A DNA stretch of 64,000 bases, from NCBI GenBank assembly GCA_964416505.1, contig CAYQEJ010000005.1:22488-86487 (forward strand), in the 5' to 3' direction. The notes beneath the pieces are model-generated. The model made no database searches. It was not told the DNA's origin and worked only from the letters and a program-made list of their open reading frames with translations. The stretch is from an uncultured Gammaproteobacteria bacterium. GTDB lineage: Bacteria; Patescibacteriota; Microgenomatia; Levybacterales; UBA12049. Made by a program: the position numbers and the translations under genes. This document shows positions 4,863 through 23,532 of this stretch, one piece after another (position 1 is the first letter of the stretch; each line of letters begins with the position of its first letter).

Positions 4863-4932
4863 TCCTTGGATCCAGCCTTTTAATTTCCCCTATTAATCTC
4901 AAAAAATTTTATAAACTCTCTGTAGCCTTGCT

Positions 4933-4963
4933 AGCCTCGCAAGGCCAGGCCTTGCGAGGCTAC
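4933..4963. repeat. REP-like 31-bp perfect palindrome (tagcctcgcaaggcc-a-ggccttgcgaggcta), copy 1
   Basis: Two 15-bp arms are exact reverse complements. Lies immediately 3' of the RAYT gene. Confidence 0.85.
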
Positions 4964-4972
4964 GACTATAAG

Positions 4973-5650
4973 TCAATCCTCTATTATTAAGTTGTCTAAT
5001 TTTTCGTAGTCGTTAAATTCTTTTATAAAATTTTCGTAAGTAAGATTTGGAAACTTTTGAGAAAAATGGATAAGCACTTCTTCTGGTCTAACCCATTTCG
5101 TATCTTTTATTCCCAAATATTCAGAATATGAAGATGGTGTCTCAGCATTTATGGCTTGCTTATGAATATACTTTGTTAAATGGACAAATTGTTCGCCATT
5201 TCCTACCAAAACAGCTTTGTAAACACCTTGAAACAAAGAACCTACTCTCTTATATTTCCTATTAAAATACATTGAATATCTAGTAAAAACAGAATTCATA
5301 AATTTATCTATACTATCCAAATGTTTTTGCTTCACGAAAAAATGGAAATGATTTGGCATCAAACAATAACAAATAAGCGTAATTTCATCAGAAAAATTAT
5401 TTAAATTAAGAAGTTTTAATACTTTATCTTTTTCTTTATATGAGGTCTCGGGGTCATTTAGCTTTTCGGCTAGTTCTTTTTCGTTTTTTGGCAATAGATA
5501 TTCCTTCAGGTAAGAAAGGAAAACCGAATAATCTTGAGCATCCAGAAATATTTTCCTTTTTTCTACCCCCCTGTTATAGAGATGATAGTAGCCATTCTCC
5601 AGATAGCTTTTCCTTCTATTCTTGGCAGGCATAATTTTAAAATAACACAA
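4973..5650 (-). CDS. REP-associated tyrosine transposase (RAYT) / IS200-like Y1 HUH transposase
   Basis: HUH motif (CLMPNHFHFFV) and catalytic Tyr motif (GSLFQGVYKAVLV). Flanked by REP palindromes at 4933-4963 and 5684-5698. Confidence 0.8.
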   Translation of the reverse strand: MCYFKIMPAKNRRKSYLENGYYHLYNRGVEKRKIFLDAQDYSVFLSYLKEYLLPKNEKELAEKLNDPETSYKEKDKVLKLLNLNNFSDEITLICYCLMPNHFHFFVKQKHLDSIDKFMNSVFTRYSMYFNRKYKRVGSLFQGVYKAVLVGNGEQFVHLTKYIHKQAINAETPSSYSEYLGIKDTKWVRPEEVLIHFSQKFPNLTYENFIKEFNDYEKLDNLIIED

Positions 5651-5683: not shown

Positions 5684-5698
5684 CTAGCCTCGCAAGGC
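5684..5698. repeat. REP half-site (tagcctcgcaaggcc), copy 2
   Basis: Exact 15-bp arm of the palindrome. The second arm is absent. Confidence 0.7.
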
Positions 5699-5906
5699 CA
5701 AACTAAAACTAGCTGATGATTTGGATAATATTTATCTTAAGAATGCTGGGATTTTATAGGCGAACCTCATATCTAGCCTTGAAAACTCCTAAAAGACACC
5801 TATTAAGAAATGGCTTTCTTATGCCTTCAAATACCCTTTGAATTTATCAACAAGAGGTACTCAAGGTCAACCAGCAATTGCTGAGTTAATTTGGTAAAAT
5901 TGCCTC

Positions 5907-7010
5907 ATGAATTTCCCTACTATAAAGGAAAGCGAATATACATACTCAAAACCAATTACAGTTAAAGAGTGGAATAACGGCACCATATGTGTGAAGGTGG
6001 GATATGTTAGAAAACACCCTGAAATAAACTGTATTGTGCTTGAAAAGAGATGGAAATCAAGACCTGACTGGTGGGAAACTAAAACGTTCTCAATAAAAGA
6101 TGCCAAAGATTGGCTTAAAATTAGAGATGCTGTCGAAAAACTTTTACCAGAACTTGCAGAAACACCCTCATCTCAGACAATAGAGAAAGCAATTAAGAAA
6201 GTTGGGAATGAAACAGAATTACTTGAGTTAGTAGCAACTTATCCTGAGCTTCTCGCACAAATCCCAAAAGATATCGACATCCTATCGCTTCCTGAAGATC
6301 ATAAGGAGGCGTTAAAAAAATTATTATCTGTGGGTGGAGAGCTGGCAAACATCGTCATAAAACGGCTAGCAGATGAGCCAATAGAAGACTTGAACCAATT
6401 TGTGAAATTATTAGATGAATTAAAACTATCGACAATCAACTCACTCGTGACACATGTCACCTCCCGCTTACGTTTCATTGAAATGTTCGAAAAAGCTATT
6501 CACAATGATGATTCTTATGAAAGACGTGGACCTGAATCTATTCATAACTTATTAAAGGTAAATATCTGGCTCCTAGACCAGAACTACTCTGTCTTACATG
6601 ATGATGAAACCCTTAGAAATATTATCCTCAAGGAATGGGATAAGGATGTAGGGAACCAAGGAGATGGAAAAAAACGTCCTGATTTTCTTTGCATGATTGA
6701 TCCACTATCACAACGCGATGGATACAAAAAATTGGTAATAGTTGAAATTAAAAGACCTACTGTAAAAATTACATTTGAGCATGTTAAGCAGATGATGGAA
6801 TATAAAGGGATCCTTCACTCATACTCGGGTAAGCAAATTGACTCTTTCGAATGCTTTCTGATTGGTAGAGAAGTTGACCCTACCTTACAAATTAACGACT
6901 TATCTAATTCGGGATTTGTTATCAAAACCTATACTGACTTTATCAGCGAAGCAAGAAGGTTCTATCAAGAATACTTCAAAATCATTGAACAAGAACACTA
7001 CGCTTTTTAG
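5907..7010 (+). CDS. Hypothetical protein with C-terminal PD-(D/E)xK nuclease-like motif (restriction-endonuclease-like fold; possibly DUF4263/Shedu-like)
   Basis: C-terminal RPDFLCMIDPLSQRDGYKKLVIVEIKRP shows D, then about 15 residues, then E-x-K on a predicted beta-strand, the canonical PD-(D/E)xK arrangement. N-terminal region unrelated. Sits alone between REP copies next to the RAYT. Confidence 0.45.
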   Translation: MNFPTIKESEYTYSKPITVKEWNNGTICVKVGYVRKHPEINCIVLEKRWKSRPDWWETKTFSIKDAKDWLKIRDAVEKLLPELAETPSSQTIEKAIKKVGNETELLELVATYPELLAQIPKDIDILSLPEDHKEALKKLLSVGGELANIVIKRLADEPIEDLNQFVKLLDELKLSTINSLVTHVTSRLRFIEMFEKAIHNDDSYERRGPESIHNLLKVNIWLLDQNYSVLHDDETLRNIILKEWDKDVGNQGDGKKRPDFLCMIDPLSQRDGYKKLVIVEIKRPTVKITFEHVKQMMEYKGILHSYSGKQIDSFECFLIGREVDPTLQINDLSNSGFVIKTYTDFISEARRFYQEYFKIIEQEHYAF

Positions 7011-7274
7011 TCCCATGCCGCACAAGATGATTCTACGTCACAAAATGGTTGTTTTTAAACGAGGAAAATAAACAGAGTCGCCATTTTAATTGCCCGGCGA
7101 CTCTGAGCATCTCACTAAATGCCACCCTGATTATTCCACTTTAAAATAACGATTTCAACTTCCTCACCCGAACTTTATGATGAACTGGATCAGATTGCGA
7201 ATTCTTTCAAATATACAGGAAACTGACACCCCTACTTACCAAATCCAGACTCCTCCCACCATACCCTATAATCT

Positions 7275-7305
7275 TAGCCTCGCAAGGCCTGGCCTTGCGA
7301 GGCTA
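7275..7305. repeat. REP-like 31-bp palindrome, copy 3
   Basis: tagcctcgcaaggcc-t-ggccttgcgaggcta. Same arms as copy 1 with a different central base. Confidence 0.85.
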
Positions 7306-7498
7306 GCGCTATAGACACTTTTAATTAAGCTTCTTGGCATTTTTATTTATTCCTTACTTGACATCTGGTGGGATTAAATTTATAAATTAGTTATAAAGGT
7401 TAAATAAACTTTTAATATAGTATCCAAAACCATACTATATTACTTCATTTAGCTGTAGAGGGGCTAAGTTTTAATAGTTTTAAATTTTTACTATGGGA

Positions 7499-19130: not shown

Positions 19131-19928
19131 ATGGACGACAATAAAAAACAGGATCAGATTGAAGAAACCCAAACAACAGCTGAAGAAGCTTCTCAAACCA
19201 CGGAAGAAGGGTTAACAGAAGAGCAAATTAAAGAAGATACAACTATGGCTCCTGTTCCAAATATTTCTGAACCAGAAGCTATAAACGAAACTCCAGAAAG
19301 CTTAACCGAAGAACAAATTAAAGAAGACACCAAGATGCTTCCCGTGGAAGACCCTGAAGATAAACTTGAAGAAGCTAAAAAAGTATTAAATCAAGCAGAC
19401 ACCACTAACGCAAGATGGTATATAGTTCATACTTACTCAGGACATGAAAATAAAGTTTCCAAATCTATAAAACAGAGAGTTCAGAGTCTTGGATTTGAAA
19501 ATAGAATTTTCGATATCATCGTTCCAACTAGAAACACTATTAAAGTTAGCCAAGGTAAAAAAGAAAACGTAAAAGAAAAGATTTTTCCAGGATATGTTTT
19601 GGTAAAAATGATTTTAGATGATGAATCATGGCTTTTAATTAGAACTACACAAGGAGTGACTGCATTTATTGGTGCTGGAAATAAACCAACTCCAATTTCA
19701 GAAAAAGAAGTTGAAGCAATCCAAAAATTCATGAACGAAGAAGAACCACTTTACAAAACTGCATTTACACTTGGTGAAGCTGTAAAGATTGTAGATGGAC
19801 CTTTTGCAGATTTCTTAGGAACAATTGATGATATTGATGAAGCAAAAGGAAAGATCAAAGTACTCGTAAGCATTTTCGGACGCGAAACACCAGTAGAACT
19901 AGACTTTTTACAAGTAAATAAGTTATAA
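19131..19928 (+). CDS. nusG: Transcription antitermination factor NusG with ~90-aa acidic N-terminal extension
   Basis: NGN domain (WYIVHTYSGHENKV...FPGYVLVKM) and KOW domain (GEAVKIVDGPFADFLGTIDDID). N-terminal Glu/Thr-rich extension with the repeated motif LTEEQIKEDT. Confidence 0.9.
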   Translation: MDDNKKQDQIEETQTTAEEASQTTEEGLTEEQIKEDTTMAPVPNISEPEAINETPESLTEEQIKEDTKMLPVEDPEDKLEEAKKVLNQADTTNARWYIVHTYSGHENKVSKSIKQRVQSLGFENRIFDIIVPTRNTIKVSQGKKENVKEKIFPGYVLVKMILDDESWLLIRTTQGVTAFIGAGNKPTPISEKEVEAIQKFMNEEEPLYKTAFTLGEAVKIVDGPFADFLGTIDDIDEAKGKIKVLVSIFGRETPVELDFLQVNKL

Positions 19929-20056
19929 TTCAAAAAACTTGTTGAATATCTGGGAGTCCACCAACTGGCGGACGTTTGGACCAGTAGATAAGATTTGAAC
20001 CTAAATATAGGCCTCTTCTCTACTATCCTTTCTAGAAATTCAATCAATTAAATTAT

Positions 20057-20476
20057 ATGGCTAAAAAAATAAAAACAGTTATAAAGATCAATATTCCAGC
20101 TGGAGCAGCAACTCCTGCGCCACCTGTTGGAACCGCATTAGGACCACACGGACTTCCTATTATGGAATTCGTAACTGCATTTAATGAAAGAACTGCTGAG
20201 CAAAAAGGTAACATAGTTCCTGCAGTTATTACGGTTTATGAAGATAGAACTTTCTCTTTTATTACCAAGAAACCTCCTATGGCTGAACTTATTAAAAAGG
20301 CAACAGGACGCGGTGGATCCCATAATCCAGGAAAAGAACCAGGCGGAAATCTAACACGCGCACAGGCTGAAGAAATTGCTAAAACAAAAATGGAAGATTT
20401 AAATACCGATGAATTGGAACAAGCTGTAAGTATCGTAAAAGGAACAGCTAGAAGCATGGGGGTAAAAGTAGAATAA
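20057..20476 (+). CDS. rplK: Ribosomal protein L11
   Basis: PAGAATPAPPVGTALGPHGLPIMEFVTAFNERT signature. Confidence 0.95.
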   Translation: MAKKIKTVIKINIPAGAATPAPPVGTALGPHGLPIMEFVTAFNERTAEQKGNIVPAVITVYEDRTFSFITKKPPMAELIKKATGRGGSHNPGKEPGGNLTRAQAEEIAKTKMEDLNTDELEQAVSIVKGTARSMGVKVE

Positions 20477-21291
20477 TGGGAAAAATTAGAGTAAAAACAT
20501 TAGGAGACGAAGAAAAAGAACTAAAAGATAAAGAGCTTCAAGAGAAAAAAAGAGCGGAACGCGAAGCGCAAGTAAAATCCGAAGAATCACAGGAGTCAAA
20601 TGAAAATCAAAATCAAGAATTAGCCTCGCAAGGCCAGGCCTTGCAAGAGGAAGCTTCTGAAAAACCTGCTAAGAAGACAAAAAAAGCTAAATTTATTAAA
20701 AAATCCAACAAAAGAAGTGCAAATTACACTGCAAAAGTAATGGAAATTGACAAAAATAAAATCTATTCCCTATCTGAAGCACTAGAACTTTTAAGAAAAG
20801 TTAAAATTGCAAAATTTGATGAAACAGTTGAGCTTCACATAAACACAACTGAAGCAGGAATTTCCGGACAAGTAAAACTTCCTCACGGAACTGGAAAAGA
20901 ATTAAGAATTGCAGTTGCGGATGATGCGGTACTTGCTGAAGTAGAAAAAGGAAAAATTAACTTTGATATTTTAATCGCAACTCCATCTTCTATGCCAAAA
21001 CTCGCTAAGGTAGCTAGAGTCTTAGGTCCACGCGGTCTTATGCCAAATCCAAAAAATGGAACAATTTCAGAAAATCCTGAAGAAGCTATGAAAAAATTCC
21101 AAGGTGGACAAATCAGCTTTAAAACTGAAAATAAGCTTCCGCTTATTCATTTATCAGTTGGAAAAACATCTTTCGAAAATAAACAACTAGAAGAAAATAT
21201 TAAAACTCTTTTTACTGCAATTAAAAGAGATAGAATAAAAAAAGTAACACTTAAATCCACAATGTCTCCTGGAATTAGAATCCAGGCATAA
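20476..21291 (+). CDS. rplA: Ribosomal protein L1 with ~75-aa Lys/Glu-rich N-terminal extension containing a REP-derived segment
   Basis: L1 core (YSLSEALELLRKVKIAKFDETVELHINT...LGPRGLMPNPKNGT). The extension includes nt 20621-20650, which equals the REP palindrome and is translated as LASQGQALQEE. Confidence 0.9.
   Translation: MGKIRVKTLGDEEKELKDKELQEKKRAEREAQVKSEESQESNENQNQELASQGQALQEEASEKPAKKTKKAKFIKKSNKRSANYTAKVMEIDKNKIYSLSEALELLRKVKIAKFDETVELHINTTEAGISGQVKLPHGTGKELRIAVADDAVLAEVEKGKINFDILIATPSSMPKLAKVARVLGPRGLMPNPKNGTISENPEEAMKKFQGGQISFKTENKLPLIHLSVGKTSFENKQLEENIKTLFTAIKRDRIKKVTLKSTMSPGIRIQA
20621..20650. repeat. REP-like palindrome, copy 4 (partly degenerate), embedded in-frame in rplA
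   Basis: tagcctcgcaaggcc-a-ggccttgcaagagg. First arm exact, second arm matches 8 of 15. Confidence 0.7.
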
Positions 21292-21292
21292 A

Positions 21293-22153
21293 ATGAGCCC
21301 TGACAGAAAAGAATACGGGACAAAAGCTGCCAAAGCTTTAACTACTACAAGAAGCCGAATACCATCACGAGATCAAATCGGAACCTCAGCTTTATGGGAG
21401 TTAACACGCTACACACTTCGTCATGAAATTGTGGACCCAAATGGACATTTTGACGATGCCAAGGAACATTTAAGAGGCGGCGGATCTCTACTAGTAATTG
21501 TAAACCACTTTGATCGGCTTGATACGACAATACTTGGACATGCAATTGAGGACAATTTAACCCCATTAGAAAGTGTGGCTGGAGTCACATCTCTTAGATA
21601 TTTAGACCCCAAAAGAAGTCGCCTCATTTCCAGAGTAATTGATAATGTCAGACGAGTTAAAGGATTTAGCACTATTCCAGTAATTCAGGATAAAGAAGAA
21701 GAATTAGAATACTACTCAGAAAATCCTGAAGCACTAAATGGAAAAAGCCCCAGAAGATTCAATTTAGAAGCAATGAAAGACGCAATAGAATTCCTACAAA
21801 CTCCGGGTAATGTATTAATGATGGCTCCAGAAGGAACAAGAAGTCCAGACAGAAAATTACTAAAAGGACATGAGGGATTAGACAGCATTATGAAAATGGC
21901 AAGAAGAACAGCACTGGTTTTGCCAGTTGCTATAACTCCACCAGATACTAGAAGAATTGTGCCTCCATATACTAAAGTTAAAGTTGTTCCAGGAGAACTA
22001 TTCTCATTAGAAGATGTACTGATCGAACACGAGGAGGAAAGAAAAAATTCAAGCATCCGCCGCGATCTTACGGTTACAGATCGCATGATGTTAAGGCTCG
22101 CAAAATTACTTCCTCCTAAAAACCAGGGGTATTACAGAAGATTTATTAAATAA
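21293..22153 (+). CDS. Lysophospholipid acyltransferase (PlsC-like) family protein
   Basis: HX4D motif (VNHFDRLD) and PEGTR motif (MAPEGTRS) of LPLAT-family acyltransferases. Inserted between rplA and rplJ. Confidence 0.5.
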   Translation: MSPDRKEYGTKAAKALTTTRSRIPSRDQIGTSALWELTRYTLRHEIVDPNGHFDDAKEHLRGGGSLLVIVNHFDRLDTTILGHAIEDNLTPLESVAGVTSLRYLDPKRSRLISRVIDNVRRVKGFSTIPVIQDKEEELEYYSENPEALNGKSPRRFNLEAMKDAIEFLQTPGNVLMMAPEGTRSPDRKLLKGHEGLDSIMKMARRTALVLPVAITPPDTRRIVPPYTKVKVVPGELFSLEDVLIEHEEERKNSSIRRDLTVTDRMMLRLAKLLPPKNQGYYRRFIK

Positions 22154-22381: not shown

Positions 22382-23140
22382 ATGGGAATTGTAAAACAAG
22401 CAACAAAAAAAGTAGGTCGTCAGAGAAAAGAACAAATCGTAGCGCAGCTTATTGAAAAAATCGATGCTTCTCAAGCGATTGTATTCACAGATTATCAAGG
22501 AATAACACACAAACAACTTGAAGATCTAAAAAAAGAGCTTAAAAAGCTTGATTCTTCTATTGTAATTGCTAAAAATAGCTTACTTAAAATTTCATTAGGA
22601 AAATCTAAAAATTTTGCAGATTATAAAGACAACGAGAGCCTAGACAAGCCTACAGCTACTCTTTTTATAAGAGCAGATTATGTAGAACCACTTAAAAAAC
22701 TCCAGAAGTTATCAAAAGAATTAGGCCTTCCAAAGATTAAATTTGGCATAATTGACGGACAAGCGCTTGACGAAGCACAAGTGCTAAAAGTAGCTTCTCT
22801 TCCAAATAAAGAAACACTTATTGGTCAGTTTGTTGGATTACTCAACTCGCCTATTCAGGGCTTGGTGGTTACACTTAACGCTCCAATTCAGAAATTTGCA
22901 ATGACACTTAACGCAATTGCGCAAAATAAACCAGCTCAAGCTGCACCAGCTTCTGAGCCTGTTGCTCCTGCAGCCGAAGCCACTCCTGCTGAAATAGCTG
23001 AGGAAACTACCACCGATACAGCGGAACAACCATCTGAAGAAAAACCAGCAGAATCTACAGAAGTTCCAAGCGAAGCTCAGACGGAAACACCAAATGAAAC
23101 AGAAAATCAAACAGAAGAAAATAAAGGGGGTGAGAATTAA
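22382..23140 (+). CDS. rplJ: Ribosomal protein L10 with Ala/Pro/Glu/Thr-rich C-terminal extension
   Basis: L10 N-terminal domain ([24 protein letters not shown]...[11 protein letters not shown]). About 70-aa low-complexity C-terminal tail. Confidence 0.9.
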
Positions 23141-23532
23141 TGGCAAAACTTTCAAAAGATGATATTTTAACAGCAGTTGAAGAAATGTCTGTTCTCGAAC
23201 TCTCTGATTTAGTTAAAGCTCTCGAAGAAAAATTCGGAGTTTCAGCACAAGCTATGGTAGCAGCTGCACCAGCAGCAGGTGGCGCTCCAGCAGGAGACGC
23301 TCCAGCAGGAGAAGAACAAACAGTATTCAACGTTGTAATCGCATCAGGAGGAGCAAATAAAATTGCAGTTATTAAAGCAGTTAGAGAATTGGTTCCTACA
23401 CTAGGACTTAAAGAAGCAAAAGACTTAGTTGACGGAGCTCCAAAAGAAGTTCTAACAGCAGTTAATAAGAAAACCGCTGATGAAGCAAAAGAGAAATTAA
23501 CAGCAGCAGGAGCTACTGTTGAACTCAAGTAG
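23140..23532 (+). CDS. rplL: Ribosomal protein L7/L12
   Basis: Classic L12 N-terminal domain, Ala/Gly hinge and C-terminal domain ([27 protein letters not shown]). Confidence 0.95.

Follow-up and report, generated by a model that had tools for sequence, protein, structure and literature searches.

Analysis of a 64,000-nucleotide (nt) stretch of DNA from an uncultured bacterium of the Levybacterales (Patescibacteriota; contig CAYQEJ010000005.1 of assembly GCA_964416505.1, positions 22,488 to 86,487), supported by comparison with orthologous loci, suggests that a copy of the genome's own repetitive extragenic palindromic (REP) sequence has been fixed in frame in rplA, the gene for ribosomal protein uL1 (L1). 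The copy lies in a linker predicted to be disordered; conservation shows that it is translated, and it is most probably carried as a tolerated passenger without a role specific to L1; we put the probability of this reading at roughly three in four. Coordinates refer to the whole stretch, called the window, which comes from a genome with 36% GC and carries the operon order secE-nusG-rplK-rplA; L and P numbers denote related sequences.

Six exact occurrences of the 15-mer TAGCCTCGCAAGGCC are present in the window, against 0.07 expected in shuffled sequences, none of which reached six. These short copies fall into four REP loci in 64 kb, about one per 16 kb. Repeat scanning and folding revealed a perfect 31-nt palindrome at 4932..4962, between the convergent genes for an M50 peptidase and a transposase related to the REP-associated tyrosine transposases (RAYT), 10 nt past the stop codon of the latter; a single arm, or truncated copy, at 5685..5699, about 50 nt upstream from the RAYT start; and a third copy at 7266..7314, with a perfect 31-nt core (7275-7305) whose hairpin is lengthened by outer CTATA/TATAG pairing. 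The perfect palindromes at 4932 and 7275, together with the related copies, are the sole long GC-rich palindromes in the window. The fourth locus is the segment TTAGCCTCGCAAGGCCAGGCCTTGCAAGAGGAAGC in rplA (20620..20654, plus strand). It equals the copy at 4932 exactly over 24 nt (20621-20644), comprising the first arm (20621-20635), the center A, and GGCCTTGC; a 2-nt AA insertion follows, after which GAGG matches again. Codon 49 begins at 20620, and the first 33 nt of the segment (TTA GCC TCG CAA GGC CAG GCC TTG CAA GAG GAA) are read as LASQGQALQEE, residues 49 to 59. The original prediction, made from the DNA letters of the window, had placed an element with an exact first arm and a second arm matching at 8 of 15 positions at 20621-20650; the exact first arm and the translation stand, while the second arm is better preserved than claimed (11/15 even when aligned without gaps). 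It had also noted correctly that the copy at 5685 reads LLASQGQ in one frame and that decay of the second arm would weaken the mRNA hairpin: the rplA copy folds at -19 kcal/mol (z of -1.9) as an interrupted stem of 7 plus 4 bp, against about -31 kcal/mol for the perfect copies (z of -5.7 and -6.9).

The rplA gene itself (20476..21291, plus strand; called from its open reading frame [ORF] and Pfam) encodes 271 amino acids (aa), as first proposed, and its product matches Pfam Ribosomal_L1 (PF00687; E = 3e-33), with the domain in the C-terminal part. Its ATG at 20476 shares one base with the TAA stop of rplK (20057..20476, plus strand; ribosomal protein L11, 139 aa, identified from the ORF list and Pfam Ribosomal_L11_N and Ribosomal_L11), and this TAATG overlap was seen again in orthologues. 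Residues 79 to 270 align end to end with residues 3 to 225 of solved bacterial L1 chains (E of about 1e-32 to 1e-34), as expected for a relative of the canonical uL1 of E. coli, T. thermophilus, and B. subtilis; since residue 3 of the solved chains falls on residue 79, the window protein differs from these by an N-terminal extension of about 76 aa, close to the roughly 75 aa of the original prediction. Alignments, including those to the PDB, and an AlphaFold model delimit the extension to residues 1 to 78 (20476..20709, plus strand), which comprise a conserved helix-forming head (1 to 40), a variable acidic linker (about 39 to 66), and a conserved basic patch (67 to 78). A search of 5.8 billion proteins found more than 100 homologues covering all 271 aa at 53 to 80% identity; few carry organism names, and those that do are assigned to Candidatus Levybacteria or Patescibacteria. 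In an alignment of 37 homologues (56 to 99% identity), the first 30 or so residues are conserved as MGKIRVKTIGDEE.E.K.K.E...KRAEKKAR, the extreme N terminus MGKIRVKT.GDEE is invariant or nearly so, and the same holds for the patch residues K67, K70, K72, F73, S81, and Y84 before the canonical fold, which, like M1, are at least 90% conserved. The 25 to 50 residues in between are hypervariable in both sequence and length, and it is here that the repeat peptide falls. The AlphaFold model, built with this alignment, has a helix at residues 12 to 40, a pLDDT (predicted local distance difference test) below 50 at residues 39 to 70, and a normal L1 fold from residue 82. Judged from these homologues, the extension is not peculiar to the window gene; the Levybacteria/Microgenomates-like lineage as a whole has conserved it.

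The same comparisons support translation of the repeat within rplA, as opposed to a place in a 5' leader. Both flanks of the repeat are under protein-level constraint in one frame, so the repeat between them must be translated, and the open frame is retained across the hypervariable linker in every orthologue whose DNA was read. The conserved N terminus, the basic patch, the canonical N-terminal helix that starts at residue 79, and the TAATG overlap all speak for the start at 20476 over an internal Met, a choice that had been raised as a check at the outset.

That the repeat is a genuine REP was a guess in the original prediction, and the context of the other copies bears it out. The gene between them (4976-5632, annotated as 4973..5632, minus strand; 219 aa, beginning MPAKN), which lies 15 kb from rplA, encodes a RAYT-like Y1 (HUH) tyrosine transposase, as judged from Pfam, motifs, fold match, and synteny. 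The protein carries the motifs YHLYNRG, HFH (its HUH motif), GSLFQGVY, and KYIHKQ with the catalytic Tyr, of which HFH and KYIHKQ are invariant across the transposase alignments, and it scores 39.4 bits against Pfam Y1_Tnp (cutoff, 23). Its AlphaFold model (pLDDT of 80) finds E. coli RAYT in complex with a REP hairpin (4ER8) as the best PDB match in Foldseek (E = 2.5e-3; probability, 1.0), with ISDra2 and IS608 only marginally behind; in a profile search against the PDB the sole match was a weak one to ISDra2 (E = 0.036), and a single-sequence search of the PDB gave no match. The family has more than 7,700 matches, from Levybacteria/Patescibacteria, one of which has been named RayT by the Joint Genome Institute (JGI). 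As to whether the protein belongs with RAYT or with the TnpA of IS200/IS605, these matches are mixed. In the window a full REP lies past the stop codon of the gene and a half REP before its start. In L089, which belongs to the same metagenome-assembled genome (MAG) as the rplA locus L001 (both contigs share the prefix CAZMGC01), an orthologue 80% identical occupies the same place beside the M50 peptidase gene, with perfect copies of exactly the window REP on both sides, one of them a full palindrome where the window has the single arm at 5685, and with a third copy orthologous to that at 7275; the copies orthologous to 4932 and 7275 are conserved, the latter within diverged flanks. The orthologues in L090 and L091 (74 and 73% identical) share this synteny, and there the outer arm TAGC(C/T)TCGCAAGG is kept around a different center. 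Genes fmt, def, and Wzy_C lie near the transposase in the window, L090, and L091. More distant paralogues have their own, different palindromes on both sides (L028, L014, and L063) or on one side (L016). The flanking copies and the syntenic, covarying palindromes are the decisive evidence for REP identity, and they support the repeat as part of a REP-RAYT ('REPtron') pattern.

The likeness to the REP-RAYT systems of Proteobacteria extends to a palindrome of 30 to 35 nt, a Y1/HUH gene flanked by cognate repeats, syntenic vertical inheritance of that gene, repeats that covary with the transposase lineage, and occasional copies lying wholly inside ORFs, to which they add a few amino acids. The present system differs in its host, a member of the candidate phyla radiation (CPR)/Patescibacteria; in its perfect palindromes with a one-base center and TTAG or CTAG ends; in a low apparent copy number (four loci in 64 kb); in a protein of about 219 aa that falls under the NCBIfam RAYT threshold; and in having in-frame copies within numerous housekeeping genes as well as within the RAYT gene. 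As separate observations, 5 of the 36 related genomes have RAYT-like genes no farther than 10 kb from rplA, more often than chance would suggest (L010, 8916-9518; L024, 3321-3734; L028, 6893-7567 and 12008-12673; L014, 13632-14267; L016, 4505-4873), in L010 and L024 directly downstream from rplA. The gene at 5907-7010, between the RAYT gene and the third REP, has a weak, subthreshold likeness to models of BbrUII/HgiDII restriction enzymes and Shedu nucleases; it may be a candidate defense-type nuclease bracketed by REPs.

A scan of metagenome contigs for GCCTCGCAAGGCCNGGCCTTGC returned 44 loci; nine of these (L041, L047, L049, L059, L060, L069, L072, L078, and L079) were set aside as unrelated matches in GC-rich contigs, of which seven fall in a single conserved gene. 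In the other loci, from related CPR genomes, the element was found in frame inside long ORFs of tmk, lepA, pheT, copA, rarA, valS, prmC, uvrC, and a tyrS-like gene, names that were read from the ORF translations alone. Only two reading frames are used, giving LASQGQAL(R/Q) and SLARPGLARL; the third opens with TAG. The recurrence of LASQGQAL(R/Q) as the product of the same DNA in unrelated genes upholds the claim that the peptide in L1 is a direct product of the repeat. In copies read as LASQGQAL, the second arm is always altered, while the perfect palindromes in genes use SLARPGLARL. A complete second arm gives an in-frame TAA or TAG in the LASQGQAL frame, so only copies with an altered arm survive there, and the 'decayed' arm of the rplA copy would thus reflect a condition of survival rather than simple age. 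The transposase family shows the same phenomenon: 36 of 112 RAYT homologues (P0241-P0360; for example, L028 6893-7567) carry LASQG[E/Q]ALR... in frame right after the catalytic YIHKQ motif, where the others have a short, REP-free ALNLKNQP. On these translations, the repeat has made its way into the very gene for its transposase. In tmk (L039, L045, L053, L057, and L068; P0121-P0240), the site lies after the P-loop helix and ranges from the REP-free YLTDKNIPFEV through equal-length intermediates (YLASQGVPWEA, YLASQGLAWEA, and YLASQGLALEA) to the longer YLASQGQALQVEV, with 2 and 5 additional aa; in P0139 an extra 20-aa insert is nested in the palindrome center. The series suggests not insertion alone but also replacement or conversion, which may be templated. 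Orthologous copies whose arms are identical differ in the center base, with A in one species against T in the other (window 4947/7290 and L089 6822/10730; also L045, L057, and L088), which in coding copies switches Gln and Leu; such a difference is what would be expected from inversion of the hairpin loop or from reinsertion in the other orientation. Apart from this element, other GC-rich in-frame oddities were noticed in CPR proteins (...LRTPRNDV..., ...SRHPSSV..., and CATTGCGAGCGAAGCGAAGCAATC; L080, L073, L075, L056, and L045 1402-1412) and suggest that there may be more families of small in-gene repeats.

Aligning rplA orthologues for the insert, as had been proposed, revealed identical, decayed, and variant states. 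In L001, whose L1 is 73% identical to that of the window, all 35 nt of the segment are identical, including the nonpalindromic tail AAGAGGAAGC; in L081, 33 of 35 are, with one substitution in the tail. Among the window, L001, and L081, the flanking linker sequences resist alignment. The same arrangement of rplA and repeat in these three independent assemblies shows that it is not an assembly artifact. Elsewhere the copy has eroded: only the center is left in L082 (TTACAGTCTAAAGGCCAGGCCTTGCAGG), where the fold is not better than that of shuffled sequences (z of +0.2), and only the first arm in L084 (TTAGCTTCGCAAGGAGAGACCCTGGAGCCTCAA). L087 and L088, on other branches, have a fuller variant, TAGCTTCGCAAGGCC[A/T]GGCCTTGGAGCCT. 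Besides the window protein, 9 of 120 L1 homologues have a recognizable peptide, and these are scattered on a neighbor-joining tree. Compared at the DNA level, the copy in rplA is an old, inherited one, at any rate in the group of the window, L001, and L081; all rplA copies may go back to one event, or the linker may have been hit or converted repeatedly. Two further features of the gene were noted. A 39-nt in-frame indel, ARLAESERSDDGQ, follows the conserved helix in L001 (7164-7202), L081 (776-814), and L086 (8554-8592) and is absent from L085; L003 and L087 carry related pieces of it, and all four combinations with the REP peptide occur. It was considered as a second mobile repeat, which is not supported: across all the loci fetched, its 11-mers turn up in rplA orthologues and nowhere else. 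P0001, from a 930-nt JGI contig, and L084, a 1,626-nt contig, start inside or just before the palindrome, which suggests that the repeat breaks assemblies and gives rise to truncated L1 entries in databases.

Taken together, these data would fit a history in which a RAYT or a hairpin-based process placed the REP at 20620-20654, where insertion would have been tolerated in the variable, acidic, predicted disordered linker, the one part of the protein able to absorb it. Translation from the ATG at 20476, coupled to rplK through TAATG, runs through the repeat; the altered second arm avoids an in-frame TAA or TAG, and with it the mRNA hairpin weakens to -19 kcal/mol from about -31 kcal/mol. At least two other species share this old copy, which is eroding elsewhere and is probably neutral.

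Several findings weigh against this account. The best NCBIfam match of the transposase, REP_Tyr_transpos, scores 31.8 bits, under its 80-bit cutoff. The REP ends are mostly TTAGCC or CTAGCC, not the classical GTAG; GTAG was found at a REP end only on one side of the copy at 4932 and in L066, so that a general GTAG (or CGTC) tag is lacking. Three of only four REP loci in 64 kb adjoin the RAYT gene. In rplA there is no clean empty site: in L085 and L086, the closest relatives without the peptide, the linker is of similar length but of another composition, which leaves insertion boundaries and any target duplication undefined. REP-positive extensions are on average only about 9.5 aa longer (P = 0.02, uncorrected for phylogeny). 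The tmk site can have the same length with and without REP-like sequence, so that simple insertion is not the whole story. Finally, identity over 35 nt between species amid a linker that cannot be aligned hints that the segment is maintained and not neutral, as do the GC-rich codons kept there although the genome has 36% GC.

It is possible, if not our favored account, that the rplA copies stem from several independent hits of a permissive linker or that resident copies are repeatedly rewritten from the genome's own pool of REPs, through gene conversion or template switching (concerted evolution). The patchy distribution on the L1 tree would agree with this, as would the near-sisters P0002, with the peptide, and P0003, without it. 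There are also two types of copy, TAGCCTCGC...GCAAGAGG in the window, L001, and L081 and TAGCTTCGC...GGAGCCT in L084, L087, and L088; around the RAYT genes of L090 and L091, too, the TAGCTTCGC arm is found. The center base flips between A and T in rplA (L088), tmk, and both intergenic pairs, and tmk provides a continuum of equal-length REP-like states. However, the nonpalindromic tail shared by the window, L001, and, with one substitution, L081 points to one event for this group; L082 and L084 share the downstream linker and look like complementary remnants of one ancestral copy; and the neighbor-joining tree, built on 185 residues, is poorly resolved.

A functional in-gene hairpin under nucleotide-level selection, acting either as an mRNA structure that tunes rplK and rplA or as a DNA hairpin bound by the RAYT or another protein, is the main rival to the passenger reading but appears unlikely to us. 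It would explain why the segment is identical between the window and L001 although the C-terminal domains of the two are only 80% identical, with 61% identity at third codon positions, and why its GC-rich codons persist; the orthologous intergenic REPs are likewise perfectly conserved islands in diverged flanks, and a structure of -19 kcal/mol remains. Yet identical runs of 26 to 35 nt are also present in the C-terminal domains of these gene pairs, the copy is decaying in L082 and L084, most L1 homologues are without it, its fold z is only -1.9, and the element occurs in many unrelated genes, with nothing specific to L1. At gathering thresholds, Rfam finds only eight tRNAs in the whole window, and at E values up to 10 it finds nothing credible in 19850-20750, which indicates that no known L1/L11 leader or other RNA family lies at the repeat. 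A broader proposal, to which we give similarly little weight, is that the hairpins of a previously undescribed REP-RAYT system of Microgenomates enter essential genes repeatedly, are actively maintained there at the nucleotide level across species as working parts, through selection or hairpin-templated conversion, and can overwrite native coding sequence without a change in length, as the tmk series would suggest. If this were true, the in-gene copies in L1, thymidylate kinase, PheT, ValRS, UvrC, CopA, and RAYT would be recognition or regulatory hairpins and not debris.

Somewhat more doubtful is the view that the Y1 gene and its flanking hairpins are an ordinary insertion sequence of the IS200/IS605 type, with the dispersed palindromes as derivatives resembling MITEs (miniature transposable elements with inverted repeats). 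The two share the Y1 HUH superfamily and single-strand hairpins as the recognized DNA; Pfam places the protein in an IS200-like family, structure and profile comparisons match it closely to the transposases of ISDra2 and IS608, and in other lineages RAYT-like copies stand at other sites (two in L028 and one each in L010, L014, L016, and L024). However, in the window, L089, L090, and L091, four genomes with transposases 73 to 80% identical, the gene keeps one chromosomal position beside that of the M50 peptidase; the same palindrome lies on both sides, whereas IS200/IS605 sequences have distinct left and right ends; no tnpB gene is adjacent in any of these four; and RAYT is the best match by fold and by NCBIfam alike. 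Neither distinct ends nor mobile, multicopy, full-length elements were found, although L028 has multiple copies.

Very improbable is a start downstream from the repeat, for example at Met89, which would make the repeat an untranslated leader between rplK and rplA: some entries for close homologues are annotated from an internal Met (P0109 and P0110; 183 to 190 aa), but such a start would delete the conserved canonical helix from residue 79 and leave out the basic patch, both upstream from Met89, and it is opposed by the N-terminal motif conserved at the protein level in more than 100 homologues, by the open frame across the linker, and by the conserved TAATG. Translational bypassing of the hairpin is unneeded, since the segment is in frame and without stops. 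A terminator was rejected (the perfect palindromes have no T-runs, the rplA copy scores only in antisense, and total matches fall below the shuffle expectation), as was a DNA uptake sequence, for which a density of about one locus per 16 kb, with none in 35 of 36 related rplA loci, is far too low; a chance match was given low weight as well.

The closest parallel to a translated passenger is found in another small AT-rich genome. Rickettsia palindromic elements (RPE) are reportedly found in frame in protein-coding genes, an observation said to go back to Ogata et al. in 2000; RPE-1 measures about 100 to 150 bp, and RPEs are not known to have a dedicated transposase. Both cases involve in-frame palindromic repeats in essential genes that are translated, tolerated at permissive sites, and decaying, and here such in-frame, translated palindromes were found in rplA, in about ten other gene families, and in RAYT genes. 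The Levybacterales element differs in being about 33 bp long (31 to 37 nt), well short of the RPE range, in probably having no sequence relationship to RPEs, in flanking a RAYT-like gene, and in its unrelated host. REPs inside genes and the REPtron pattern have been described, and RPEs discussed, by Di Nocera et al. (2013; PMC3733652), so that the event, called unusual in the original prediction, is less so than thought; it is uncommon but has published precedents. Our literature search found no paper that links RAYT or REP to CPR bacteria or reports palindromic in-frame repeats in CPR, and as far as that search reached, this is the first such case found in an uncultured ultrasmall (CPR) bacterium.

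Some observations concern neighboring loci. Upstream from rplK, the region at 19900-20056 has a promoter-like TAGACT-18-TATAAT followed by a leader of about 125 nt with CUGGGAGUCC...GGACGUUUGGACCAG, which is possibly a candidate L1-binding regulatory helix, with no Rfam match. NusG (19131-19420) has an acidic N-terminal extension of about 90 aa with a tandem duplication in which SLTEEQIKEDT occurs twice, within GLTEEQIKEDTTMAPVP and SLTEEQIKEDTKMLPVE, and L10 (rplJ; 22900-23137) has a low-complexity tail of about 80 aa rich in Pro, Ala, Glu, and Thr, followed by a normal rplL (23140-23532). The gap between rplA and rplJ is a variable cargo site: it holds an acyltransferase gene in the window (21293-22153) and, in relatives (L082, 1019-8980; L085, 1034-7098; L086, 9443-13204), several large genes whose matches to cohesin, dockerin, and beta-helix families are faint or weak, among them one gene with a glycosyl hydrolase 18 domain.

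Our combined results suggest that REP-RAYT systems, earlier studied almost solely in Proteobacteria, exist in CPR/Patescibacteria. In tiny genomes with little intergenic space, such repeats land in essential genes, even that of a ribosomal protein, and appear to survive in disordered linkers and loops. They thereby provide a tangible origin for some of the strange low-complexity insertions in CPR proteins and a marker for lineage history. They also call for caution in annotation, as assemblies can end at the palindrome and an internal Met is at times chosen by gene callers. The apparent persistence of the repeat at the nucleotide level, the flips of its center base, and the equal-length series in tmk could help in studying the maintenance of hairpin repeats.

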